A DNA stretch of 64,000 nucleotides, taken from the IMG/VR virus record IMGVR_UViG_3300019889_000166, positions 1,533 through 65,532 of that record. One strand, 5' to 3'. This document shows, in pieces, positions 3,331 through 38,316 of this stretch (the stretch's first letter is position 1; each line of letters starts with the position of its first letter). The notes beneath the pieces are model-generated. The model saw only the letters and a list, made by a program, of their open reading frames with translations. It had not been told where the DNA came from and did no database searches. Position numbers and translations under genes: made by a program. Origin of the DNA: a virus (Duplodnaviria > Caudoviricetes).

Positions 3331-4145
3331 CCCTCGCTGAGGTCGAGCTCCACCTCGTAGTGCAGCACGGCGCGATCCCCCGGCGAGATGACCCGTGACG
3401 CTTCGACGGGCCGCTCCCCCACCCAGAACACCCGGACCATCGAGATCACCGGTCCGGGTGTTTCCATGCGCAGCGCCTTGCGTTCGTCGTCGCGGGGCAT
3501 CCGGGCTTCCGCGTCGTGCGTCACCCGGGTGACTTCGAGCCCGAGGGAGAACAGTTCGGCGATGGTGCCGCCGGGCCAGGGCTGCTGGCCGGGGTCGATG
3601 AGCGGGGTTCCGCCGGCGAGCTTCCACGGGATCGCGGAGCGTTGCAGCTCCATGGGCTGGCCTTTGGCGTACTTCACGAACCGGCGGCGGAGGAGGTCGG
3701 AGCCTTCTGGGAGGAGGAGGCGGCGGGCGTCTTCGGCGGTGGCGGGTTCTTTGGTGACGTGGGCGTCGACGGTGTACTGCGGCCAGCTGATGCCGTGGTC
3801 TTCGGTGAACGCGGAGGTGAGCGGGTGGGGCTCGCCTGACTTGAGGAGGCGGAGGGTGCGGCCGTAGCGCTCAGCGTCGATGGGGCGTTGAGGGGGCGTA
3901 TCCCGGACGCGGGTTGCCGCGCCGCTGCGCTTGACGATCAGGGCTTCGCTTTCGAGGATGCCGAGCGCGTCGCGGATCGAGCCTCGGGACAGCCCGGTGC
4001 CTTCCATCATCTCGGCCTCGCTGGGGAGTTCCTCACCGGGGGTGAGCCTGCCGTCGTCGATCGCTTCGCGCAGGGACGCGGCTAGCTGACGGTACTTGGG
4101 CAGCTGCGCGTGGTGGTCGATCAGCGCGGTGAGGTCGATCGGCAT
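3327..4145 (-). CDS. GntR family regulator with UTRA domain (HutC subfamily; Kor/TraR-like)
   Basis: PKYRQLA..LR..I..G.L.PGEELPSE...SRGSIRDAL wHTH plus UTRA-like C-terminus; divergent from transfer genes; -10-like TACGCT 6 nt before ATG (leaderless). Confidence 0.92.
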   Translation of the reverse strand: MPIDLTALIDHHAQLPKYRQLAASLREAIDDGRLTPGEELPSEAEMMEGTGLSRGSIRDALGILESEALIVKRSGAATRVRDTPPQRPIDAERYGRTLRLLKSGEPHPLTSAFTEDHGISWPQYTVDAHVTKEPATAEDARRLLLPEGSDLLRRRFVKYAKGQPMELQRSAIPWKLAGGTPLIDPGQQPWPGGTIAELFSLGLEVTRVTHDAEARMPRDDERKALRMETPGPVISMVRVFWVGERPVEASRVISPGDRAVLHYEVELDLSEG

Positions 4146-27043: not shown

Positions 27044-27462
27044 CAGGCCTCCAGATTGTCGCTGCAGATGTAGTCGCGCTGGAACAGAAGCGAGCCGCGC
27101 TGAATGTCGCGGACAGTCAGTTCGCGGCCGACGAAGGTCGGGTCCTCGCAGGCGGCGACGGTGCCGAAGTCATCGAGCACGAGGTCCATCGAGACGGGGC
27201 CGGACACCTGGTAGTCGTGGCTGGTGATCTTCTCGGCCCCGGCGACAACGGATCCTGCGCTGGTGGTCTCGTGGTGCTGGATGCGCACCTCGCCGGCGAA
27301 GATGACGACTTTCTCCCGGCTGGTCGAGCCGGTGTCCGGGTCGTGCACGGACTCGCCCGTGAACCGCTCGAACGTGATCGTCGCGGTCCATGTCGTCGTG
27401 AGAACGGGCCGGTGGTGAGCGGTCCAGCCAGCCGGAATTACCCGGGATCCTGGGAACGGCAT
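27043..27462 (-). CDS. head closure/stopper protein (DUF6093-like)
   Basis: ATG 27462; DPDTG, DP..VGREL.V.DI..GS...QR. Confidence 0.75.
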   Translation of the reverse strand: MPFPGSRVIPAGWTAHHRPVLTTTWTATITFERFTGESVHDPDTGSTSREKVVIFAGEVRIQHHETTSAGSVVAGAEKITSHDYQVSGPVSMDLVLDDFGTVAACEDPTFVGRELTVRDIQRGSLLFQRDYICSDNLEA

Positions 27463-28067
27463 CAGTACGGCCAGCCGGAGCGGCACGCGTAAGGCTCGAA
27501 CTCGGCGATCTCGAAGCCGGACGACTCGGCGTCGCCCTCACCCTGGTCCTCTTGCCTGCGCAGTTCGGTAGCCTGCGCCCGGAGCGCCGCGGCGACAGCG
27601 GGCCCGTCGGTCTGGAGATCCTGGGTGCGGATCTTCTTCGACACCATCGCCTCGTTGCCCGCGATCGCGTCCAACGCCTGCGCGGCCGCCCGTTTCACGG
27701 AGTCGCCATTCATGGCGAGGAAGCGGGCGATCTGCTGCGTCGAGAAGATCCGGTTCGCGGGGTCGGTGTCGGCGATCAACAGCCGCACGTCCCCCTGCTC
27801 CTCGGACGGAGGCGGTGCAGGGTCAGCGTCGGCCGTGTCCCACTGCGTGCCCGCGCCGGTCCCGGTGACGATCCACCCGATGTACCAGGTGCCTGCCGCG
27901 TCGAGCGGGACCTGCACGGTCCACGACGCGCCGCCACCTGACGGGGTCGGGGTCGCGGGGGTCTCGGTGCCGTCGGGCGCCCGGACGGTCACGGTCGCGT
28001 CTGTCGTCCCATCGAACGGGTCTACGCCGAGGGTGAAGACGGCGATGTCGCCGACGTCATACGCCAT
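27462..28067 (-). CDS. head-tail connector with N-terminal Ig-like extension
   Basis: VRLLIADTD...IFS..QI..FL...VKRAAAQAL..IA...TQDLQTDG connector; N-terminal ~90 aa beta-rich domain. Confidence 0.8.
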   Translation of the reverse strand: MAYDVGDIAVFTLGVDPFDGTTDATVTVRAPDGTETPATPTPSGGGASWTVQVPLDAAGTWYIGWIVTGTGAGTQWDTADADPAPPPSEEQGDVRLLIADTDPANRIFSTQQIARFLAMNGDSVKRAAAQALDAIAGNEAMVSKKIRTQDLQTDGPAVAAALRAQATELRRQEDQGEGDAESSGFEIAEFEPYACRSGWPY

Positions 28068-30765
28068 GGCTCACCTCCAGTTGGCTCGATGGTTGGTTCC
28101 ACGCGGTCAGGTCGGACGAGTGCGAGTTGGTCGCGGTCAGCGTGGGTTCGACGGGCGGCACGACTGCCCCGAACACCAGCTGATAGGCGGCGTCGATCTC
28201 GGCGGCGACCCCGAGGGTCCGGGCCTTGGCCGCGGTCAGCGCGGCGGCAGCGTCCGTCTCGGTTGCGACGCTGAGGATCACGGTCTTGAACAGGACCAGC
28301 GGCCGGGCGAGATCGGTCTCGCTCGCCTGCCCGAGGGTGGTCGCCTTGCTGGCAGCCAACGGCCGCGCCGTGTCGGTCTCGGTGGCCACTCCGAAGATGG
28401 CGCCGGGGCCGGCGCCGGTCGTGATCTCGTGCGCCGCATCGGTTTCGGCGGCGCTGCCGAGCGTGACCTGCTTGACCCGGAGCAACGCGAACACCGCATC
28501 CGCCTCGGAGGCGACACCCAGCACGACGGTCTTGGTCGCGACAACCGCATGGGCAGTGTCGGCCTCCGACGCCTGGCCGATGGTGACGGTCCGGGCGTAG
28601 GTCGCCGACAGGGCTGCCGCCGCGTCGGTCTCCGTCGCTACGCCGAGCGTGACCTGCTTGCTGGCGACAGCGGCCAGCGCTGCGTCGGTCTCACTCGCGG
28701 CACTGAGGGTGCGGGCCTTGCTGGCGGTGATCCCGAGCGCGGCGTCCGTCTCGGTAGGCCGGTTGAGCGTCGCAGCCTTGGAGCGCACCAGCGCCAACGC
28801 GGCATCGGTCTCCGTCGCCAGCGCCAGGTCGACGCCGACCGGCGCGACCACGAACTGGCCCGGGTTCGCGTACAGCCACGCGACGTTGCTCGCACTGAAG
28901 GGCGTGTCGAACAAGGTGAGGCTGTCGACATCGGCAACCGCGGCATCACCGCCGGGGTCTCCACCGACGTTCAGTTCGGTCGGGACCAGTAACGCCCCCA
29001 TGGTGTACGCCGCCGACGCTACCCAGACACCGTTGAGGAAGAACTGGATGCTGTTGCCGTTGCAGGAAGCCGCGACGTGCGTCCAGGTCTCGGCGGTGAT
29101 CGGCGCCACGGACGGGTTGATGATTCCCGTCGTGCCTCCGGCCCCGTAGAGACGCACCCAGAACAGGCCACTCAGGCGGCCAGCGTGAGCCACCTCGGTG
29201 CCGCCAGCCCGCATCGTCAGGAAGCGTGCGCCTGAGGTGCTGGTGCGGCACTTGACCCACCCGGAGAACGCCCACCCCTTGGGGGCCGCCGACCAGTTCA
29301 CCCCGGATGCCCTACGAGCACCAGCGCCCGCTGCCCCGTTGGAGCCGAGAGCGGACCCCTGCACACCAGTGACCCAGGAGCCGGCGGCAGTGAGCGTCAG
29401 GTTGTTCCCCGCAGGGGAGCGGTCCGCAGCCGCGGTGCCGGTGTTCTCGTTGAACTCGTAGACGCCCCGGGCAACGTTCGCGGGCTTCAGTGCTGTCTGT
29501 GCGACCGGAGCACCAGCCCAGTAGAGATCGGTCGGCGAGTTCACGAAGTTCTTCGTGAACGTCAGGTAGTCGAAGGTGACCTGGCCGCCCACGGACGCGT
29601 CGCCGCCGACGTACAGCACATCGAGGTCCGTGACCGTTGGAGACAGGACCGGCGTCGCGTTCGACGTGTTCGTGGTCTGCTGCGTCGACGAGTCGAGCCG
29701 GATATTGACGTAGGTCGGGTTCATCGCGACCTGGAAGCGGCTCCAGGCGCCGACTGTCAGCACCGACGCGCTCGTGACCGAGTAGGTGCCGTAGACAGTC
29801 ACCCAGGTGATCGTGACGGACCTGTCGGTGTTCACCACGACCCGGAGCCGCGAGGACCCGCCTGAGGAGTCGATCGCCAGGATCGGCGCCGCACTGCCTA
29901 CGGGCGCCGTGTCGAGCCGGAGCCAGCCGGTGATCGCGAGCCGGTCACAGTCGGGCAGGTTGATCGCCGCACTGGCCCCGGGGCCAGCGGCGCTGGTCGA
30001 CAGGGCCCGGCCGTAGAGCCCTGCCGTGTAGCTGCCAGCGGCGGTCTTGGTCAGGTCCCGGTTGTAGATGCTGAAGTCGTCCGTTGTGTCGTCATCGAAC
30101 GGGTAGATCGCCAGCTGGAAGTCAGTCTGCTCGGCCGCCACGATCGCCGCGATGGAGGCTGCCTCGACGGGGTCGTTCCACCAGCGGATATCGTCGATGA
30201 TCCCGTCCAGCGGCTGCGCGCCACTTAACGCGTTCCGTCCGGCGTCCATGGTGACGGCGCCGTTGTAGGTCAGGGCTGTTGCGGTGGTGGTCGAGAGCAC
30301 TTGGGTGCCGTCGACGTAGATCTTGACGGTGTCCGTTGCGACAGTTGCGTCCAGAACGACCATCACGTGGTGGAAGGCGCTGTCACGGATGCTGGTCGAC
30401 GTCGAGAACGTCACCCCGGCGATCACCGCTTCGACGTTCCCGGAGGCGTTGCTGGCGTACAGCGCCCACTTCAACGCTGACGCTGCCGAGGCGGAGGCGA
30501 TGCACCGCGCTGCCGAGGTGGTGGTGTTCAGCTTCACCCACGCGGCCACGGTCAGGCCGCCGTCGGTATTCACCGGGTAGTCGAACTCGCCGATCGGGCC
30601 GACGCGCATCGCGCCACCGGTGCAGTTCAGGCCGTTGCCGTACTTGCCGGTCGCTGTCGCAGCCGAGCCGACGATCGTCCCGGTCAGGAAGTAGCCGGAG
30701 AGATCCCGGACCTTGCTCCCGCTGACGGTGTCCGAGTTGAAGGAATACCCCGCCCCTTGGGCCAT
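28057..30765 (-). CDS. LamG/concanavalin-A-like multi-domain virion protein with repeat stalk
   Basis: Three LamG-like units (TVAAWVK..FHHV..IYVDG..GIIDDIR; ITGWLR; FSGWVK..WTHVA..FFLNG) then 11 ETD-type repeats. Confidence 0.8.
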   Translation of the reverse strand: MAQGAGYSFNSDTVSGSKVRDLSGYFLTGTIVGSAATATGKYGNGLNCTGGAMRVGPIGEFDYPVNTDGGLTVAAWVKLNTTTSAARCIASASAASALKWALYASNASGNVEAVIAGVTFSTSTSIRDSAFHHVMVVLDATVATDTVKIYVDGTQVLSTTTATALTYNGAVTMDAGRNALSGAQPLDGIIDDIRWWNDPVEAASIAAIVAAEQTDFQLAIYPFDDDTTDDFSIYNRDLTKTAAGSYTAGLYGRALSTSAAGPGASAAINLPDCDRLAITGWLRLDTAPVGSAAPILAIDSSGGSSRLRVVVNTDRSVTITWVTVYGTYSVTSASVLTVGAWSRFQVAMNPTYVNIRLDSSTQQTTNTSNATPVLSPTVTDLDVLYVGGDASVGGQVTFDYLTFTKNFVNSPTDLYWAGAPVAQTALKPANVARGVYEFNENTGTAAADRSPAGNNLTLTAAGSWVTGVQGSALGSNGAAGAGARRASGVNWSAAPKGWAFSGWVKCRTSTSGARFLTMRAGGTEVAHAGRLSGLFWVRLYGAGGTTGIINPSVAPITAETWTHVAASCNGNSIQFFLNGVWVASAAYTMGALLVPTELNVGGDPGGDAAVADVDSLTLFDTPFSASNVAWLYANPGQFVVAPVGVDLALATETDAALALVRSKAATLNRPTETDAALGITASKARTLSAASETDAALAAVASKQVTLGVATETDAAAALSATYARTVTIGQASEADTAHAVVATKTVVLGVASEADAVFALLRVKQVTLGSAAETDAAHEITTGAGPGAIFGVATETDTARPLAASKATTLGQASETDLARPLVLFKTVILSVATETDAAAALTAAKARTLGVAAEIDAAYQLVFGAVVPPVEPTLTATNSHSSDLTAWNQPSSQLEVSHGV
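28170..28830 (-). repeat. 11 tandem ~20-aa coding repeats ([TSA]E[TAI]D core)
   Basis: ATETD, PTETD, ASETD, ATETD, ASEAD, ASEAD, AAETD, ATETD, ASETD, ATETD, AAEID at 20-22 aa spacing. Confidence 0.9.
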
Positions 30766-30768
30766 GGG

Positions 30769-31233
30769 TCAGCTCGCGGTGAAGAAGCCAGCCGCATTGA
30801 AGGCGGCCGTGGTGGCGACGTCGGTGTCGAACGTCAGGGTGCCGACCAGCAGCTGGCACAGCGGGACGATGTCAGCGTCGGTGCCACCGGAGGCGTTGTC
30901 CCAGCAGACGATCGCGGCGCCCGCGATCTGCGTCGCGCCGGTGTTGGTGTAGCTGGCCGGGTCAGCGGCGTCGACCGCCATGACGTCGGTGCCGTCGTTC
31001 ACGGCAGCCACGACGGAGGCGAGGGTGCGGCGGGTGTAGCCGGTGAAGTCGCACTCGTCGTTCGCGGCAGCCAGGATCAGCGACAGGTTGTCGTAGTCCT
31101 TGAGCGTCGCGTCGGACTCGAGCCCGGTCGACTTCAGCCACACCAGGATCAGTGAGTCCGAGGCGTCAGGCAGGTCCGCGTACCGGGCGACCTTGCCCTT
31201 GGCGATGTTGAACGTGAATGCGGCGGTTGCCAT
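30769..31233 (-). CDS. virion structural hypothetical protein
   Basis: FTFNIAKG...E.DFTGYTR..L; SD GAGGAG. Confidence 0.8.
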   Translation of the reverse strand: MATAAFTFNIAKGKVARYADLPDASDSLILVWLKSTGLESDATLKDYDNLSLILAAANDECDFTGYTRRTLASVVAAVNDGTDVMAVDAADPASYTNTGATQIAGAAIVCWDNASGGTDADIVPLCQLLVGTLTFDTDVATTAAFNAAGFFTAS

Positions 31234-31260
31234 GGCGGTACTCCTCGAGCAGGGGGGTGT

Positions 31261-31410
31261 GGTGTCGGGGCGCAGGACGCGCCATGGCAGGGAGAAAGGA
31301 GGACGCTCGATGCAGCGCAGCCGTTAGCCTGGCCAGGGACTCCCCGGTGCGCCTTCCCGCGGTTGTCTGAGAGCAGTCGCATCGATTCCGCGGGTTGACG
31401 CCCCGACACC
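31261..31410 (-). ncRNA. putative structured RNA with pseudoknot (unassigned)
   Basis: 12-bp closing stem, 7-bp stem, 8-bp pseudoknot helix, further stems; G-U pairs work only on the minus strand. Confidence 0.65.
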
Positions 31411-31421
31411 CAGCTACTGGG

Positions 31422-31640
31422 CTAGCGGCCCGTGACCGTCTTGCGAGTGGTCTTCGAGGCCGCCTTCTTCGCCGGAGCCATCGCCGCAGGCTTCTCGGCC
31501 TGGACCTCAGCCGGCTCATCCCGCGGCAGTTCCGCCGGTTCCGGCGACGGCTCCAGCAGACTCTTGATCTGCTGGAGCTCGTCGAGGATCGCGACCTGGA
31601 TCGCCTCCCCGGTCGTGACCGGCTTGAAGGAGTGGGTCAC
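31422..31640 (-). CDS. small protein after major capsid, basic PAKK tail
   Basis: GTGA overlap with capsid stop. Confidence 0.75.
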   Translation of the reverse strand: MTHSFKPVTTGEAIQVAILDELQQIKSLLEPSPEPAELPRDEPAEVQAEKPAAMAPAKKAASKTTRKTVTGR

Positions 31641-32809
31641 GCGCCCGCGCCGGTGGAGACCGCGGTCGCGATCATGTCGGTGCCAGCGCCACCCACAACG
31701 TGGCGCGCCCGGTACGAGATGTCGTCCGCCTCGAACGAGCCCTCCTCCGGAGCGACCGGACCGCCGCCGACACGGTTGCCCGCGTCGGCCTTGACGCGCA
31801 GGTCCGGGGCCTCGTGTCCACGCAGGAACGCCAGGAACAGCGCCGGTCGCGCGGACGTCGGGGCAGGCAGCAGGTACCAGGTGGTGTTCACGTTGGCGCC
31901 CTTGTCGATCACCGGCAGCCAGGGGTCCACGACCAGCTGAACCCGGCCGGCAACCGAGTTCTTCATGATCGTGGTGGTGCTGCCGTTCGTGACCCGGATC
32001 TCGATCGCGTCGAGGATCTTCCGGGCCGTGGTCTCGAGCGCCGGCGGCACCACGAGCTTGTAAGCCGCCACGGCGATCGGCAGTCCCTCGGGGTCGAGCC
32101 GCTGCGAGATCGCGTCCAGTGCGGCCTCGAGGCTCAGGTCGGTGAGCACCGGGTTCCCGGCGATCAGGTTCGACGATCCACCCGAGAACGTGTCAGCGTC
32201 GGGGTCGTAGGTGCGGCCCCATGCCGTCGCGTTGAAGATGGCGCTGTTCGGGCCACTGCCGTCGGTCAACAGTTTGACCGCTGCGGTGGTCTCAGTGTTC
32301 CGGGCCGCGATCGCGAGGTTGCCCGGCAGGTCTTCCAGTTCACCGAGCTCGTCGTTGATGATCGACTCCCAGGTGATCTGGAAGACGCCACCGTACTTGG
32401 AGACGCTGATCCGGTACGGCGCCTTCGAAACCGTCCGGTGCGGGTACTCGGTCCGCTCCGGCACCAGGTCCAGCGCAGCCCGGCCGCCCATCAGGTCGAC
32501 GAGCGTCTTCGGCTTGAAGTCGCGCACCGTGGTCCGCTTCGCGTACTGGTCCCACACGGGCGGCAGGTCCTGGTACCGGGCCATCATCTCCCGGTCGAGA
32601 ACCTCGAACGCGGCACCGCGGAAGTCGTCGGAGGTCAGCGCCTCCTGGAGGTCCAGCGCGGAGCGCTTGTTGCCGTGGAACGCCTTGCCCATCAGTCGGG
32701 CTGCGGCGACCACTTGGGCTTCGTTGATGCGGCGCGGCCGGGCGAACAACTGGTCGTCGGCCGTGGCCTCCTCGACGCTCGCGCCGGTGAAGGTCTGGAT
32801 GGGGCTCAT
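31637..32809 (-). CDS. major capsid protein (Mu gpT-like HK97 fold)
   Basis: TSDDF, VRDFKP, VPE..EY, KYG..F.ITWE.IIND, LVVPPALE, WYLL, FLRGHEAP. Confidence 0.9.
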   Translation of the reverse strand: MSPIQTFTGASVEEATADDQLFARPRRINEAQVVAAARLMGKAFHGNKRSALDLQEALTSDDFRGAAFEVLDREMMARYQDLPPVWDQYAKRTTVRDFKPKTLVDLMGGRAALDLVPERTEYPHRTVSKAPYRISVSKYGGVFQITWESIINDELGELEDLPGNLAIAARNTETTAAVKLLTDGSGPNSAIFNATAWGRTYDPDADTFSGGSSNLIAGNPVLTDLSLEAALDAISQRLDPEGLPIAVAAYKLVVPPALETTARKILDAIEIRVTNGSTTTIMKNSVAGRVQLVVDPWLPVIDKGANVNTTWYLLPAPTSARPALFLAFLRGHEAPDLRVKADAGNRVGGGPVAPEEGSFEADDISYRARHVVGGAGTDMIATAVSTGAGA

Positions 32810-32828: not shown

Positions 32829-33188
32829 TCAGTAGCCGAGCTTGACGCGGATGGTGGCGGTCGCGCCGGACGTGACGGCCGCGAGCGCGTAGCCGAACCG
32901 GACGCCGTTGGTGCCGTCCTTGTTGAGCTTCACGGTGTTCGCGGTGTCGTAGTACAAGATGTCGCCGGCGGCGACAGCGATGTTCGCGTTCGCGGCGTCC
33001 TTGCCCTCGACAGCGAGCAGCCACACGCCTTCGGTGTCGACCGACGTGGTTCCGTCGGTGCGCTCGTCGGTGACGGCGACCGCCGGGATCTGGCCGATCA
33101 GGACCGGGTCACCCGACTTCGGAGTGGCTGGCAGGGAGCAGACGACCGAGAGCTTCGTGCCGTCCGCGAAAACCATGTTCTTCGCCAT
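32829..33188 (-). CDS. capsid decoration/cement protein (DUF2190-like)
   Basis: MAKN...SGDPV.IG...VA.TD...EGVW...GD.LY...FGYAL. Confidence 0.85.
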   Translation of the reverse strand: MAKNMVFADGTKLSVVCSLPATPKSGDPVLIGQIPAVAVTDERTDGTTSVDTEGVWLLAVEGKDAANANIAVAAGDILYYDTANTVKLNKDGTNGVRFGYALAAVTSGATATIRVKLGY

Positions 33189-33191
33189 GGG

Positions 33192-34820
33192 TCAGGCCTC
33201 CTGGGTCTGGGGCTTGCGGCCGAAGGCCTCGTCGATCGCCCGCTGCGAGTCCGTGCGGGTGGCTTCCTTCTTCTCGCCGATCGGGCCCAGGCCGCGGACG
33301 GTGCCGGCGCTGTTCTCGATGACGGTGGCCAGGTACAGCTCCTGCTCCTTGCGGGCCTCGTCGACCTGCTTGGAGAAGGTGTCGGTGTCGAGCCGGTTGT
33401 CGGACTCGTTCAGCGGGATCTCCCGCATGGCCTCGGCGACGATCTTCTCGACGACCGGGTGGCCGAGTTCGCTGTTGGCCTCGCGGACCCGCTTCGAACC
33501 GAACTCGCGGGCGTACTCGCGGGCCTGCTCGACGGCCAGGTCGTGCTCGGCCTTCTCGCGGCCCGACTTCTCGGCGGCGAGCTCGGCTTCGAGCACCGGT
33601 ACCCGGCCGACGGCCTCTTCGAAGGTGCGCAGCTGCGCTTCCTCGATTTGGGGCATGGTGTCCTCCTCGGACTCCGTGGTGGTGGACCCGGCCGGGTTGA
33701 CCGGGACGTTCTTGGGGGTGGTGGCTTCCTCGGCTGCCATGACGCGGGCGTCAGGGTCGGCCCACAGGTCGCGCTCGAATAGCTGCGGCGCGGAGGACTG
33801 GAGGTTCGTGGTGAACGCGTCGAGGGCGTCGCCGACAGCGGACGAGAGTGAGATCCGCTCATCGCGGGTGAGCTTCCCGTTGCCGTACATGTCGTCGGCG
33901 AGCTGCGTCAGGCAGAGGTGCAGCCGGGACTCGATCCACTGGCCGACATTGCGGGCCTCGCGGACCTGTAAGAGCGCGGCCTCGCGGGTCAGTTCGACGG
34001 TGCGCGCGGCTTCATCGACCGGGACGTAGGTGCGCTTGACGCGGACCTGGACCGGGTCGCCAGTCAGTTCGACGGCGTCATCGGTCTCCTTGTAAGTCTG
34101 CGAGAACGTGCCCGGGTCGTCGCCGCCCCAGCGGTCCCAATAGACGACGCTGTCGTCGTAGTCCTCGACCCAGACATCGACACCGTCAGAGGCGTGCGCA
34201 TCACGGACCGCGTTGCGGAACTTGTCGCGGCGGTCCGAGTCGAGCTCACCGGCCTCCTGCGCCTTCCGAGCGGACTCCAAGATGAGACCACCACGTCCGG
34301 CGTGCGTCACGATGTCGACCGAGTTGAAGGTGCCGGGGTGGATCTTCTCGATGATCCAACCGGAGCGGCCTTCGGCTTCTCCGATCTCCATCTCCGCAGA
34401 CGCGCGGACTGAGACGCCGACCGCCTTGCGGAATGCCTCGTCCGCAAGGACCGTCTTGCCGAGACCTACCGGCGTGGCGCGAGCGACGAGTCGATTGCCG
34501 TCCCAGTAGGCATCCTCGGCCAGGGTTGCAGCGAGATCCTTGACCGACCGCTCCGGCCTGTCGTCGCCTTCGGATGCAGATGGGTGGTTGAGGTACGAAT
34601 GGGTTCCCGCCCCCCACACCTTGGCCTTCGCCGCCTCCTGGAGTACCTCGGCGCTGTAGTAGCCGCTCGACCCCCAGCCAGGCGTGATGATCTGTAGCAG
34701 GATCGTTCCGTCGCTGCTTCGCCCGCGCGCTTCGAGGAGCGTGCCTGACTCTTCGAGGTCCTGGCGAACGGGGTTCCCCGCCTCACTGAGCGGGGGGGTC
34801 TCGGTGGGGCTGGGGGACAT
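33192..34820 (-). CDS. capsid maturation protease-scaffold protein
   Basis: IITPGWGSSGYYSAEVL, NHP..RPERSV.DLA, VGVS, SVD.VT.AGRGG; internal GAGGAGG..ATG at 33656 for scaffold. Confidence 0.88.
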   Translation of the reverse strand: MSPSPTETPPLSEAGNPVRQDLEESGTLLEARGRSSDGTILLQIITPGWGSSGYYSAEVLQEAAKAKVWGAGTHSYLNHPSASEGDDRPERSVKDLAATLAEDAYWDGNRLVARATPVGLGKTVLADEAFRKAVGVSVRASAEMEIGEAEGRSGWIIEKIHPGTFNSVDIVTHAGRGGLILESARKAQEAGELDSDRRDKFRNAVRDAHASDGVDVWVEDYDDSVVYWDRWGGDDPGTFSQTYKETDDAVELTGDPVQVRVKRTYVPVDEAARTVELTREAALLQVREARNVGQWIESRLHLCLTQLADDMYGNGKLTRDERISLSSAVGDALDAFTTNLQSSAPQLFERDLWADPDARVMAAEEATTPKNVPVNPAGSTTTESEEDTMPQIEEAQLRTFEEAVGRVPVLEAELAAEKSGREKAEHDLAVEQAREYAREFGSKRVREANSELGHPVVEKIVAEAMREIPLNESDNRLDTDTFSKQVDEARKEQELYLATVIENSAGTVRGLGPIGEKKEATRTDSQRAIDEAFGRKPQTQEA

Positions 34821-34834
34821 GTCGCCTCCTGCTG

Positions 34835-35533
34835 CTAGATCAGCAGTGGTTGGTGGGTAGGTGCGGCTCGGTTGTTCTTCTTGCTGTTGCAGGGGCCGCA
34901 GGCCGGGACGATGTTTGCGGCGGTGTGGTGCCCGCCCTTGGAGATGGGCACGACGTGATCCATGGTCAAGGTGCGCGGCTTGCAGTTGCAGTACGCGCAG
35001 CGATGCTTGAACAGCGCCTTCATTTCGGTCCACTGCGCGGCAGTGAAGTCGTTGACTTCGACTGCGCGGAGGCGAGCCCGCCGGCTGCCGTTCAATGCGC
35101 GGATCTTGTCTCGATTCGCGGCGCGGTACCGGCGCCTGTATTCGAGCACCCGATCAGCGTTCTCTGCGTACCAGCGGCGGGAGTTCTCCAGCGTCAGTTC
35201 GTAGTTCGCGGCGCGGTACGCAGCAGTGCGGGCGTTGGCTGCTTCCCGATTCTCTGCGCGGTAGACCGCCTGAGTGGCCTGCGCCCGTTCCTTGTTCTCC
35301 GCGTACCAGTGGCGTGTGTAGTGGCGCCCGCAGTAGCCCTTACCCTGGTGCTTCCGGTCGCACCCGTCGACCTTGCATCCGATGGTGCGGGGTGAGTTCT
35401 GCGGCGGCAGTCGCCGGGGCGGGAGGACTAGTGGGTCGCCACTGTTCTTCCAGCGTCGGTAGTGCTTGTCGCACCACCCGCGGGCGACACGCTTGCTATC
35501 GCATCCGTCGATCGAGCACGTACGATCAGTCAT
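34835..35533 (-). CDS. free-standing HNH endonuclease
   Basis: CAYC, DHVVPISKGG.H...NIVPACGPCNSKK; two C..DGC....A/GRG.C..HY repeats. Confidence 0.92.
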   Translation of the reverse strand: MTDRTCSIDGCDSKRVARGWCDKHYRRWKNSGDPLVLPPRRLPPQNSPRTIGCKVDGCDRKHQGKGYCGRHYTRHWYAENKERAQATQAVYRAENREAANARTAAYRAANYELTLENSRRWYAENADRVLEYRRRYRAANRDKIRALNGSRRARLRAVEVNDFTAAQWTEMKALFKHRCAYCNCKPRTLTMDHVVPISKGGHHTAANIVPACGPCNSKKNNRAAPTHQPLLI

Positions 35534-35544
35534 GCCGTTCACCT

Positions 35545-35617
35545 CTTACCAGGTGGTCGGTAAGGGCCTCAGTCGTTTGCGCGACTGGGGCCCACTGTCT
35601 TGTATCCCCTTATTCTA
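35545..35617 (-). promoter_or_regulatory. own promoter and two leader hairpins of the HNH gene
   Basis: TAGAAT overlapping upstream stop; GGGCCCCAGTCG/CGACTGAGGCCC; CTTACC/GGTAAG next to SD AAGAGGTG. Confidence 0.55.
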
Positions 35618-36655
35618 CAGGGCTTTGGGGACAGGACTGGGCACATAGGAGTCCCGCCACCCGTCATTGCTGCGCTTCACGGCCCACTTGGACATGGGGA
35701 ACTCGCCGCGCTGGTAGGCGGCGAGCTTCGCCGGGCCGAGGATGTCCCTCTGGACTGCGACAGACTGCGAGTCGAACCACTCCTGTGAGCCGGTTACGGC
35801 CGAGGCGGGCTCGTCGAGGTCGATGCCCAGGTCTTTCCACGTCTTCGCTACCGGCGCACGAGAGCATCTGCAGTTCTGATGCCCGAGTGGTCCGGGCTCC
35901 GACAGCGGGTGCTCGGTGCCGTTCATGCCGAGACAGGCGGAACAGGTGCGGGTCGAGGTGGCGCTGAGCCACATCCATCCGCGCAGCACGTCTGCGTTCT
36001 CGTCGTGAGACAGCCTCGCTGCTTCTCGATGCGCCGAGATGGTCTCGGTCCGCGCGATCGTCAGCGCCCGACCCAGGCCGCCATTGAACTCACCTTCAGT
36101 GCGGGCCAGGATCGCGGCCGCTGTCTTGCGCGGCCCCTCCCCCACCAGCAGTCCACGCACGAGCTCGCGACGGACAGCAGCATCAGCCTCAGCCGACAGC
36201 GGCCACATCTGCGACGTGATCCGCTCCGTCGACCGCTGCACGATCGCATCGACCTGCCGCCCGTCGACCCGATCCCAGCCGACAAGCTTGTCCCGTTCGG
36301 CCTTCGGGAGTTGCGAGCCGATAATCTCGGCCTGCGCCTCCCCCGCTGCCCGCACGATCTGCGGCAAGTCGGCAGCGACCCGCCGGCCTGCGTCGTCGGT
36401 GAGCCGGGTGAGGCGCCGCGCGACCAGATCGAGCGCCTGCTGCAGCCGCTGCGACCGGAGAACTGTGGCCTGCGACAACATGCCCGTCTGCCCGGTGGTG
36501 ATCAACTCGACGAGCGCCTTCTCCAGATCGCCAGCGATGTCATCCCACGCATCCACCCAGGCCTTGGTGAGTTCCCGGGTGTGCGTGTCGCCGATCCTGA
36601 GGAGGTCGCGCCGGACTCGCTGCGCGAGGCGCAGCGCCTTCGGGGTGACCGGCAT
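35615..36655 (-). CDS. minor head protein (MuF/SPP1 gp7-like)
   Basis: RALTIARTE, W.W....RTC.AC..M.G, HQNCRC. Confidence 0.9.
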   Translation of the reverse strand: MPVTPKALRLAQRVRRDLLRIGDTHTRELTKAWVDAWDDIAGDLEKALVELITTGQTGMLSQATVLRSQRLQQALDLVARRLTRLTDDAGRRVAADLPQIVRAAGEAQAEIIGSQLPKAERDKLVGWDRVDGRQVDAIVQRSTERITSQMWPLSAEADAAVRRELVRGLLVGEGPRKTAAAILARTEGEFNGGLGRALTIARTETISAHREAARLSHDENADVLRGWMWLSATSTRTCSACLGMNGTEHPLSEPGPLGHQNCRCSRAPVAKTWKDLGIDLDEPASAVTGSQEWFDSQSVAVQRDILGPAKLAAYQRGEFPMSKWAVKRSNDGWRDSYVPSPVPKAL

Positions 36656-38316
36656 CAGTCTTGCGGGTCATCGTCGGTCGCCGGGTCGTCTTCCTCGTCG
36701 TCGCCGGTACCGATGGCGGCCGCGGGGTCACGCCCGTCACGGTGGGCCTTCGCTGCGACTTGCCCAGCTGTGACCATCGGATCGAGGAAGTTGCCCTCGT
36801 CATCGGTCATCTCGTCCAGCACTTCGTCGATGTCCCGCACCCGGAGCGCTTGCAGCAGGAGCCTGAGCGTGACGAGCGGCGGGAGCTTCATCGTGCCGTC
36901 GGCCTCGACGATCGCCTTCACGAGCACGTCGATCGGGGTCGAGTCGAAGTCTGGCCAGTCGATGTCGACCGTTCGGTCGTCGTTGTCCGGCAGTAGAACC
37001 AGCACCCGGTTGCTGCCCGGGTCGCGGGTGATCCGGCCGGTCAGAGCACCCTGTGGTGCGCGGACGGCCCAGTCCACGACGTGGTTGACGATGTCCCGCA
37101 TGAACCCGGCCCACAGTTCGCGGCGCAGGTTCATCGCCAGCTCCATCGGCTGGTCCAGCGTGTCCGCGACCGCACGGGCGCCGGTCACGCCGGGATCGCC
37201 GAGCAGCATCGTCACCGGTACGTCCAGAGCGGCAGCAACCATCGCGGCGAGCGGCCTGCCAGAGTCTGCGTCGATCGTGGCGCCCGTCTTCGGAATCGCC
37301 TCGAGGATCGTGTTCGGGTCGGACACGGCGTGCGCGCCGACGCCGTTCGGGTTACCGCCGCGAGCCTCCGTGACCGGCGCGGCACCGACCTTCGCTGCGA
37401 CCTGCTTGGTGCGGTCGCCGCGGGTCTTCGTCTGCCACGCGAACCGACTGAGTGCCTTCATCAGCACGGACCAGTTCTCGAGGAACTCCTTGTAGCTCCT
37501 GGCCCACGCGATCGACGCGAACGAGTCCGGGATGCCCCGGTTCGACCCGGTGTTGCTGGGCCGGTTCACCGACACCATCCGGACGGGCGCGTTCCACATC
37601 ACTTCGGCGCCGTTGATGTAGCGGGGCTTCGAGCCACCCAGCGGCTCGTAGCCGAGCGCCGGGTAGTACACGGTCCGCTGCCGCTCGATCAACTGGCCGT
37701 CGATCAGGGCGCGCTCGCTGTAGTCGCGGCGGTAGTACCAGTCCTCGGCGGCATCGTCGGGGTTGGTGATGATGTCGTTGATTTGCTCGACCGGGATCCA
37801 CCGCAGCGACACCTTGCCGGTCAGCCCGTTCGTGAACAGTGCGGCAGCGGCCTCGCCGTCTGTGTAGAGCGCCTGCTCCATCTCCTCGTGCGCCTGGGAA
37901 CCGGCGAACGTCTTGATGTTGCCCGGGTCGTCCATGAACGCCTGCACGACGCTGTTGACGTCCTGGCCGTCGTCGGACTGGTCCCGGACCGTGATCGCGA
38001 CACCCTGGCCCCAGATGTAGGCCTTCCGCAGCGACAGGCCGCGCTTCGACAGCGGGTTGACCACGGCCATCACGCGGCACAGGTTGCGGATCTGCTCACG
38101 GCCAGCCGACGACAGGTCGAGTTGCGCCTGCATCGACAGCCGCATCCAGCCGCGGTCCTCGTAGGCGAGCTCGACGTCAGCGAGGGACTCGCGGAGGATC
38201 TCCAGCTCGTTCATCGACGCGCCGAGCTGCTCCTCGAGGTGCGTCACTCGGAGCATGCTTTTCTCGCGGTCCACCTCGAACAGGTCAGGCTGGGTCCACG
38301 GGTCAGTCTTGGCCAT
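36655..38316 (-). CDS. portal protein
   Basis: Follows TerL; NPL.KRG...R..YIWGQG, DGE, II.NPDD, VPVTMLL.DPG.TGARA.A.TLD.P. Confidence 0.88.
   Translation of the reverse strand: MAKTDPWTQPDLFEVDREKSMLRVTHLEEQLGASMNELEILRESLADVELAYEDRGWMRLSMQAQLDLSSAGREQIRNLCRVMAVVNPLSKRGLSLRKAYIWGQGVAITVRDQSDDGQDVNSVVQAFMDDPGNIKTFAGSQAHEEMEQALYTDGEAAAALFTNGLTGKVSLRWIPVEQINDIITNPDDAAEDWYYRRDYSERALIDGQLIERQRTVYYPALGYEPLGGSKPRYINGAEVMWNAPVRMVSVNRPSNTGSNRGIPDSFASIAWARSYKEFLENWSVLMKALSRFAWQTKTRGDRTKQVAAKVGAAPVTEARGGNPNGVGAHAVSDPNTILEAIPKTGATIDADSGRPLAAMVAAALDVPVTMLLGDPGVTGARAVADTLDQPMELAMNLRRELWAGFMRDIVNHVVDWAVRAPQGALTGRITRDPGSNRVLVLLPDNDDRTVDIDWPDFDSTPIDVLVKAIVEADGTMKLPPLVTLRLLLQALRVRDIDEVLDEMTDDEGNFLDPMVTAGQVAAKAHRDGRDPAAAIGTGDDEEDDPATDDDPQD

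Follow-up and report, generated by a model that had tools for sequence, protein, structure and literature searches.

The 64,000 nucleotides of phage DNA analysed here (hereafter the window; Caudoviricetes, positions 1,533 to 65,532 of IMG/VR record IMGVR_UViG_3300019889_000166, that is, nearly the whole of this 65.5-kb virus record) contain in their head gene operon, on the minus strand at positions 31261–31410, an element whose interpretation as a real pseudoknotted RNA is strongly supported by comparison with its relatives, once the inner helices proposed in an initial annotation of the window are corrected. The fold to which these relatives point is a three-way junction with connecting strands CAA, A and none, in which the closing helix P1 would be stacked on a rod formed by P3 and P4, with P2 as a side arm. 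The loops of P2 and P4 pair as a kissing pseudoknot, and the P4 loop can hold P5, an optional hairpin. The family appears to consist of RNAs of Actinomycetota phages and prophages, present once per genome. The element is nearly always located just 3′ of the stop codon of a scaffold gene, a small open reading frame (ORF) or a major capsid gene, the latter from no fewer than five families, and the start of a head-tail adaptor gene usually lies 20–40 bases 3′ of it. By analogy with phages lacking the element, its role would be, with a probability of roughly 40%, that of a cis-acting messenger RNA (mRNA) punctuation or stabilising element separating expression of the capsid from that of the downstream genes.

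Conserved fold and covariation

The limits of the element correspond exactly to the outer ends of its closing helix, and all of the sequence strings cited in the initial annotation are present. A closing helix of GGUGUCGGGGCG (31410–31399) with CGCCCCGACACC (31272–31261), a hairpin of CCCGCGG (31394–31388) with CCGCGGG (31362–31356) and a pseudoknot of the loop segment UCGAUGCG (31385–31378) with UGCAUCGA (31314–31307) had been proposed, all on the minus strand. The structured, pseudoknotted RNA described in this way is borne out by the homologous regions that were collected, in which conservation and covariation were both found, P1, P2 and the pseudoknot being supported by compensatory changes in 69 distinct relatives. 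The three inner helices of the original proposal (GCGCA/UGCGC, CCGGGG/CCCUGG and GCGUC/GGCGC) had to be abandoned: 66.7% of their positions pair compared with 64.9% in shuffles, and their covariation score of 0.045 is attained by 371 of 500 shuffles. The place of the local CCGGGG/CCCUGG hairpin is taken by P4, a long-range CGGGGAG/CUCCCUG pairing first suggested by RNAalifold. The revised parts of the element and its immediate flanks are as follows.

31411–31424, minus strand: 5′ flank CCCAGUAGCUG and stop codon UAG of an ORF of 72 amino acids (aa); the stretch identical in other phages begins at 31420
31398–31410, minus strand: P1 5′ strand, GGUGUCGGGGCGU; 13 pairs, with a U-G at the junction that does not vary
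31395–31397, minus strand: J1/2, CAA, present in 68 of 69 distinct cores
31388–31394, minus strand: P2 5′ strand, CCCGCGG, supported by covariation
31363–31387, minus strand: L2 loop; its 5′ part UCGAUGC (31385–31379) is the first kissing strand, its 3′ part is hypervariable
31356–31362, minus strand: P2 3′ strand, CCGCGGG, supported by covariation
31347–31355, minus strand: J2/3 (A31355) and P3 5′ strand, with AGG at 31354–31352 and CGCAC at 31351–31347
31340–31346, minus strand: P4 5′ strand, CGGGGAG, from RNAalifold and then covariation
31317–31336, minus strand: P5 hairpin, CUGGCC, loop AGGCUAAC, GGCUGC; long form only
31307–31313, minus strand: second strand of the kissing helix, GCAUCGA, supported by covariation
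31295–31306, minus strand: pyrimidine tract linking the kissing strand to the P4 3′ strand, GCGUCCUCCUUU; contains most of CCUCCUUUCU
31288–31294, minus strand: P4 3′ strand, CUCCCUG, from RNAalifold and then covariation
31274–31282, minus strand: P3 3′ strand, GCGCG (31282–31278), bulged U31277 and CCU (31276–31274)
31261–31273, minus strand: P1 3′ strand, GCGCCCCGACACC
31234–31260, minus strand: A/C-rich 3′ tail and Shine-Dalgarno sequence GAGGAG (31246–31241) of a 154-aa gene

Thermodynamics alone neither supports nor refutes this fold. The folding energy is not above chance (z = −0.63 for the minus strand, where 48 of 200 shuffles fold as well, and z = −1.73 for the plus strand), and support for the fold therefore rests on comparison with relatives. 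In 72 sequences, in an alignment fitted to P1, P2, P4 and P5, 89.7% of cells pair, as against 41–47% when the partners are slid, and 31 of 40 pairs show changes on both sides, amounting to 472 cells compared with 58–105 in the slid controls; not one of 500 shuffles attains any of these measures.

Considered individually, P1 is 97.4% paired with both-side changes in 9 of its 13 pairs, an invariant top GGGCGU/GCGCCC and a length of 12–14 base pairs (bp) in 50 of 69 members, while P2 is 88.4% paired with changes on both sides of six of its seven pairs. For P4 the corresponding values are 95.1% and all six of the counted pairs, both strands being altered in loci L069, L115 and L144. P5, of the CUGGCC/GGCUGG type, is situated inside P4 of the long forms and is 78.5% paired; the 69 cores comprise 27 long forms and 42 short forms that lack it. 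P3 consists of AAGG and five bases paired with five bases and the CCU right before the P1 3′ strand (for example CGGUU/AACCG, CGAUU/AAUCG, CCAUU/AAUGG or CCGGGC/GCCCGG), and since its 3′ strand abuts that of P1, it would stack directly on P1. It is 77.7% paired, with three invariant pairs and four changed on both sides; its upper part occurs in two registers, and the upper three pairs fail in 30–43 of the 72 sequences in the counted register because one subgroup pairs in the other.

The kissing helix, the columns of which are absent from the structure of the covariance model, is 78.6% paired, compared with 33–44% for slid partners, shows both-side changes in six of seven pairs, and reaches 88.3% on a MAFFT alignment. 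In the short forms both strands of the "pseudoknot" are held in hairpin loops, which makes it a loop-loop kissing helix of L2 with L4. Mean L2/L4 duplex energies are −14.4 kcal/mol for cognate loops, −11.4 for non-cognate loops and −11.3 for shuffled L2, and none of 5000 permutations matches the cognate mean, even though no more than 8 of 66 cases have the cognate as the single best partner, as GC-rich words are common to many loops. About 20 different complementary pairs of kissing sequences can be recognised by eye.

The claim that G-U pairs fit only this strand holds throughout the family: G-U combinations occupy 265 cells and A-C combinations 38, which fixes the strand as minus and argues for RNA rather than DNA. 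Sequence conservation amounts to about 25 near-invariant bases concentrated at the junction. AAGG, like the CCU before P1, occurs in all 69 cores, a constancy that is partly a product of the search pattern described below, and A26 and A27 of the J1/2 CAA are invariant in 17 sequences found without that pattern.

Distribution of the family

An alignment of 66 capsid homologues yielded 80 viral and 35 genomic loci, in many of which the element was detected with blastn and nhmmer, and a covariance model (R1) was built from 17 sequences. Of 95 capsid-relative loci, 25 match R1 with E-values up to 2e-6, in every case in the orientation of the capsid gene and downstream of it; for the 24 capsid loci most distant from the window (L090–L113) the search was by blastn and nhmmer only. 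A 23-base pattern led to L032, which is the same as L044, and a pattern of three words led to 51 stretches in IMG/VR, where 47 of the 49 loci searched fit R1, and to 51 stretches in genomes, where 24 fit R1. All 24 of the latter have actinobacterial record titles, and none of the pattern-found genome records titled as another phylum fits R1. Altogether, each of 72 sources yielded a single match, and the cores, 111–162 bases long, include 69 distinct ones. Host genomes gave one match each in all five reached through loci and in 6 of 151 sampled from one order, these copy counts being lower bounds, with 18 to 150 first-look candidates scored per genome.

By record title, prophages of the cultured strains Kribbella deserti CGMCC 1.15906, Georgenia satyanarayanai CGMCC 1.10826, Knoellia sp. 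LjRoot47 and Desertihabitans brevis contain the element. In cultured phages, blastn searches with the element of the window and with the short-form L161 gave only short chance-level matches, and a 2.2-kb query matched only capsid genes. A weak member (34.5 bits) is found at L226:4832-5006 (Streptomyces sp. N35 by record title), where about five tandem repeats of a 12-base unit of the GCGAGUUGGAAA type stand in place of the P2 arm.

The 25 loci with relatives of the downstream 154-aa gene and without the element have unrelated regions upstream of this gene, indicating that the element travels with the head module and not with that gene. The closest capsid relative, L027 (capsid protein 91% identical), has a near-identical core but an altogether different 3′ half of the P2 loop, and its homology to the window ends exactly at the 3′ end of P1, so that the element appears to mark a mosaic joint. 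A guide-RNA role for the hypervariable half of the P2 loop was rejected, as the window offers no second site for it at three or fewer mismatches.

Genomic context

A gpT-type capsid gene is located upstream of 29 of 58 distinct elements, and four of the others lie in sequences that include almost no upstream DNA. In 27 further loci the nearest large upstream ORFs match the major-head PHROGs 212, 133/4523, 1328, 1650 and 10, as well as the scaffold PHROGs 2303, 1793 and 194. Among 44 downstream ORFs, 13 match phrog_18316, 11 phrog_17896, 10 phrog_541 (head-tail adaptor) and seven phrog_1732, these families overlapping; five match phrog_26662 and single ones match nucleotide enzymes. Lying on the strand of the phage genes, the element is presumably transcribed with them.

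In 40 of 69 cores the end of a stop codon, whichever its frame, falls in the range from 11 bases ahead of P1 to 2 bases within it, and in 51 of 69 a Shine-Dalgarno-like word starts 2–26 bases past P1. Family-wide, the eight bases past P1 are 55% C, 24% A and 9% G. A U-tailed terminator is found 5–17 bases past P1 in L156, L189, L232 and L213, and strong hairpins past P1 in L179, L185, L240/L177/L151 and L242; with a separate terminator following some members, the element is not simply "the terminator". The short-form subgroup formed by L156, L189, L232, L179 and L170 lies outside the head genes, each member after a small ORF of unassigned function. In the first four of these loci a strong or terminator-type hairpin comes next, with a new gene behind it, and in L189 the element is about 1.7 kb from the end of a tyrosine-recombinase-like ORF.

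Horizontal exchange

The capsid proteins of the window and L044 are 48% identical, and the DNA of the latter is only about 70% identical to the window where it can be aligned, whereas the element is 98% identical over a match of 171 bases and identical over 31256–31420. Such an identical 165-base allele despite 48% identical capsids indicates horizontal exchange of the element. Conversely, L034 has a capsid 90% identical to that of the window and an element only 84% identical. Overall, element identity and capsid identity are loosely correlated (Spearman 0.40, 210 pairs of 21 loci), with one clearly discordant pair. Four soil runs, from four studies, contain contigs whose match to the window is confined to about 31255–31420, with 0–1 differences and unlike sequence beyond both borders; some may be L044-like phages, and at least two show other downstream flanks. 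Judging from these alignments, alleles are passed among unrelated phages as discrete units of about 165 bases, and the element is far more widespread than the phage around it. Soil runs with only 5–14% of the sampled words of window positions 30900–31900 contain essentially nothing of this stretch but the element.

At the 5′ border in the window (31411–31430, minus strand) the junction is doubled, GCCGCUAGC / CCAGUAGC, i.e. …GGCCGCUAGC CCAGUAGCUG…, the end of the ORF being L034-like and the 5′ flank of the element, with a second, out-of-frame UAG, being L044-like. This looks like the scar of an allele replacement in which an L034-type ORF end was joined to an L044-type element.

The pyrimidine tract

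According to the initial annotation, the element is characterised by a loop resembling the anti-Shine-Dalgarno sequence. The string CCUCCUUUCU at 31302–31293 is indeed the 3′ end of the 16S ribosomal RNA gene of an actinobacterial genome (G004) which itself contains a family member, and its single match in the window compares with 0.08 expected, 7 of 100 shuffles having at least one. As a defining feature of the family this loop fails: CCUCCUUUCU is present in 8 and CCUCC in 19 of the 69 cores, UCCUUUC in 35, and only the CCUU-type tract is common (54 of 69). The tract is retained even where an intrinsic terminator parts the element from the next gene, which suggests that it is part of the fold or of its function and not a conserved anti-Shine-Dalgarno mimic. 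In the subgroup to which the window belongs, the tract may pair with ribosome binding sites.

Possible functions

The view of the element as an elaborate form of post-capsid punctuation hairpin is based mainly on the plain hairpin that fills the same slot in its relatives. In capsid relatives that lack the element, the capsid stop is almost always followed at once by a strong plain hairpin, with the same C/A-rich spacer and a Shine-Dalgarno word next, and in low-GC capsid relatives the slot holds canonical U-tailed terminators. When the best hairpin up to about 100 bases past the capsid stop was determined in 77 distinct capsid relatives without the element, the median was −31.9 kcal/mol, compared with −19.5 inside the capsid gene (77 regions; Wilcoxon p = 4e-13), and −25 kcal/mol or better was reached in 59 of 77 slots and 12 of 77 intracapsid stretches; a looser hairpin threshold did not discriminate the slot from the capsid interior. 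In L070 the same slot also accommodates a transfer RNA (tRNA) gene (3703–3776, 67 bits) after the hairpin directly behind the capsid gene.

As punctuation, the element would fill the role of the plain strong hairpin, a compact and hard-to-unfold structure being placed in the late mRNA. The 3′ end of the abundant capsid/scaffold message could thereby be protected, or marked for processing, and transcription and translation of the low-copy downstream genes would be uncoupled from it. The kissing side arm and the invariant junction might lock the rod or form a recognition site for a host factor such as a ribonuclease (RNase). The terminator and RNase III sites after gene 10 of phage T7 are an analogue of the post-capsid hairpins.

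Several points weigh against this interpretation. The argument from the slot is an analogy and not a demonstration. A plain hairpin suffices to stabilise or insulate a message, which leaves the invariant junction, the kissing loops and the pyrimidine tract unexplained, and these are more reminiscent of a binding pocket or catalytic core. About ten members have a strong hairpin or an intrinsic terminator behind the element itself. In the window there is no U tract after P1, where ACACCCCCC follows, and the combination of a GC-rich hairpin with an immediate U tract that defines an intrinsic terminator is absent; the sole terminator-like match at the element, 31318–31303, clashes with the supported fold. 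None of the 19 listed sequencing runs with this DNA is on record as RNA. The covariation counts call for caution, coming as they do from an alignment fitted to four of the helices, and GGGCGUCAAC, AAGGC and CCUGCGCCC are invariant in part by construction, as a pattern demanding these words found 71 of the matching loci, although their columns were already invariant in the 17 pattern-free sequences.

Another possibility is a new catalytic or ligand- or factor-sensing class of RNA which would cut or gate the late mRNA of actinobacterial phages behind the capsid gene and be traded as a cassette of about 165 bases, a proposal that we regard as unlikely. Similarly unlikely is a riboswitch-like cis-regulator, in which the junction would bind a small molecule or protein and so set downstream read-through or translation. 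Purine riboswitches are three-way-junction aptamers with kissing loops, and the conserved, covarying, aptamer-like fold with its conserved junction and loop-loop contact resembles this type: P1 is stacked on one arm, and two side-by-side arms are joined loop to loop. The Shine-Dalgarno words close behind P1 in 51 of 69 cores would suit such a regulator, as would the succession of terminator, Shine-Dalgarno word and gene in L156, L189, L232 and L213, which is the layout of an attenuating riboswitch, and AAGG could pair with the CCU beside P1 or with the CCUU of the P4 loop to give two states. However, no conserved alternative pairing was seen, the junction is very small, with strands (CAA, a single A, and J3/1 absent) of 3, 1 and 0 bases that are far shorter than in the purine type, no Rfam riboswitch matches, and the downstream genes (adaptor, phrog_26662, nucleotide enzymes, unassigned) share neither a metabolic theme nor a common function.

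It is less probable still that the element belongs to a new class of self-cleaving ribozymes cutting the late polycistronic RNA between the capsid and downstream genes. The near-invariant bases at the junction together with the pseudoknot speak for it, as do the occurrence in several phage intergenic contexts and the horizontal exchange, which are traits of known small ribozymes, but none of the hammerhead, twister, hepatitis delta virus (HDV), pistol, hatchet or other Rfam models matches, the junction does not contain the hammerhead core by eye, and no cleavage-site mark is found in the sequence.

Small RNAs (sRNAs) with C-rich loops directed against ribosome binding sites occur in Gram-positive bacteria, and the element could be a trans-acting sRNA of this kind, either cut from the operon or self-terminated, the pyrimidine tract (with the C-rich tail) pairing with Shine-Dalgarno regions of host or phage mRNAs. 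The 10-base identity to the 16S 3′ end in the window, the CCUU-type tract in the P4 loop of most cores, the C/A-rich tail after P1 and the intrinsic terminator after some members, as in an sRNA gene or a 3′-untranslated-region sRNA, all speak for it. Nevertheless we consider it improbable: the anti-Shine-Dalgarno core CCUCC is missing from most cores (no such word at all in L170 and L035), no promoter-like site was found ahead of the element in the window, where the upstream ORF ends 11 bases before P1, the same C/A-rich tail is found in the plain-hairpin relatives and is therefore not specific to the element, and no RNA run is among those listed for the DNA.

The sharp borders described above may reflect either active mobility or gene conversion in co-infecting phages confined to the sole common stretch. 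A selfish or semi-selfish, non-autonomous mobile cassette with inverted ends of 12–13 bp, inserting behind stop codons and rendered harmless by its fold, would account for the identical 165-base allele in phages with 48% identical capsids and in sharp-bordered soil contigs with other flanks, for the doubled junction, for the end of window–L027 homology exactly at P1 and for P1 arms that are inverted repeats; one allele shows the discordance with flanking phylogeny and sharp borders expected of a miniature inverted-repeat transposable element (MITE). Still, it is a very unlikely explanation, as there is a single copy per locus and, among the first-look candidates scored, per genome, and not the many copies of a MITE, no target-site duplication is visible by eye at the borders compared with L027 and L044, covariation in five helices and the kissing loops points to selection on the RNA fold, element identity overall tracks capsid identity, and gene conversion limited to the sole homologous stretch gives equally sharp borders.

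Recoding by a pseudoknot, with read-through or frameshifting at the stop just upstream, is disfavoured and hardly probable: a stop does lie 3–11 bases before a very stable helix in most members and the frame in the window is open for about 90 codons past UAG (ORF 31149–31409), but a single allele, shared by the window and L044, falls in a different frame after the upstream ORF in each, the L044 frame being closed by a UAA within the element, and the length varies by 1, 3, 5 and 6 bases between close relatives (171–177 bases per match), on account of which recoding was rejected and the element taken as non-coding, its compensatory substitutions being likewise without a codon pattern. A DNA-level site (att, cos or cruciform) is disfavoured by the excess of G-U over A-C cells and by the fixed orientation with the genes. 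A packaging RNA of the phi29 type was considered for the possibility of intermolecular loop-loop pairs, from which covariation cannot distinguish the present pairing, and nothing else points there. The mycobacterial toxin MazF-mt11 cuts CACCU, according to PMC12274833; a role of the UCCUU-type tract as a decoy for nucleases attacking the 16S anti-Shine-Dalgarno tail was rejected, as the window has no CACCU beside the tract.

Relation to known RNAs

Searches with the Rfam 15 covariance models gave no match at gathering scores in the whole window or in 20 related element-bearing loci. For the region 31100–31550 only three chance-level matches (E 1.3–4.8) were obtained, and Mu-gpT-DE was not among them at E up to 10. 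The Mu-gpT-DE motif, Rfam family RF03012 according to bioRxiv 10.1101/2020.02.04.933952, had been named in the initial annotation because of its similar location, and this likeness is genuine: in both cases an orphan structured motif follows a Mu gpT-like capsid gene, the one in the window matching PF10124/PF25209. However, the Mu-gpT-DE model has no match in the window or in 35 related loci, 15 low-GC capsid-relative loci included, where the only Rfam match is the tRNA in L070, and the present element is also found behind other capsid families and behind scaffold genes. The element thus appears to be neither in Rfam nor Mu-gpT-DE, a separation made by covariance-model search and not by comparison of consensus folds.

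Plain post-capsid hairpins and terminators share with the element the slot between capsid stop and adaptor gene and the C/A-rich spacer with its Shine-Dalgarno word; the element differs from them in being a multi-helix junction with a kissing pseudoknot, about 25 conserved bases and no U tract. A survey of virus sequences lists 10,006 candidate structured RNAs, some of them beside capsid genes (PMC10690425). These are likewise covariation-supported motifs in phage intergenic regions, but the ones mentioned in the accessible part of that article are upstream of the major capsid protein gene, in contrast with the downstream position seen here. No description of the element was found in the accessible parts of the literature on structured RNAs of phage capsid genes, on non-coding RNAs of actinobacteriophages or in two large motif surveys, a listing among the candidates of PMC10690425 being possible.

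The head operon of the window

The genes surrounding the element are given below in the order of transcription.

36655–38316, minus strand: portal gene
35615–36655, minus strand: MuF-like gene
34835–35542, minus strand: HNH endonuclease gene, between the MuF-like and the protease/scaffold genes
33192–35033, minus strand: protease/scaffold-like gene, 613-aa ORF
32829–33188, minus strand: cement protein gene
31637–32809, minus strand: major capsid gene, Phage_capsid_4 / Mu gpT-like, upstream of the element
31422–31640, minus strand: 72-aa ORF between the capsid gene and the element, stop codon UAG at 31424–31422
30769–31233, minus strand: 154-aa gene, phrog_26662, ATG at 31233, downstream of the element
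27462–28067: gene of a 201-aa head-tail adaptor-like protein, matching three of the overlapping PHROG families 18316, 17896, 541 and 1732

The HNH gene overlaps the longest reading of the 613-aa ORF. The capsid gene matches PF10124 (1.6e-9) and PF25209 (1.2e-38), and the element begins 226 bases 3′ of its stop. As had been stated in the initial annotation, the element occupies the largest gap of the head operon, which by ORF coordinates is 188 bases (31234–31421).

The 72-aa ORF has no Pfam or PHROG match, and its basic C-terminus ...(K/R)(K/R)VTG(Q/R) is kept in relatives despite synonymous changes. Its product could be a partner of the RNA or a mere accessory protein of the head. An ORF of about 60–75 aa separates the capsid gene from a long-form element in the window and in L044, L046, L047, L051, L053 and L122.

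In most relatives the adaptor gene follows directly after the element. In the window the adaptor-like gene is the one at 27462–28067, so that the window has an extra two-gene module (28057–31233, minus strand) before its adaptor gene, made up of the 154-aa gene and a 902-aa gene with three Laminin_G_3 stretches.

Significance

Orphan structured RNAs that combine a conserved junction with a covarying tertiary contact have in many cases proved to be riboswitches, ribozymes or protein-binding regulators. The element marks the point in the late operon at which expression must drop from the hundreds of copies of the capsid protein to the dozen copies of the connector. It is widespread in phages and prophages of soil Actinomycetota and small enough for direct biochemistry, every named helix being open to compensatory mutants, and its presence in prophages of cultured strains makes its role directly testable. 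Its exchange as a discrete block shows with unusual clarity a non-coding module passing from one phage genome to another, and the element would open a way into the little-known post-transcriptional control of high-GC phages.

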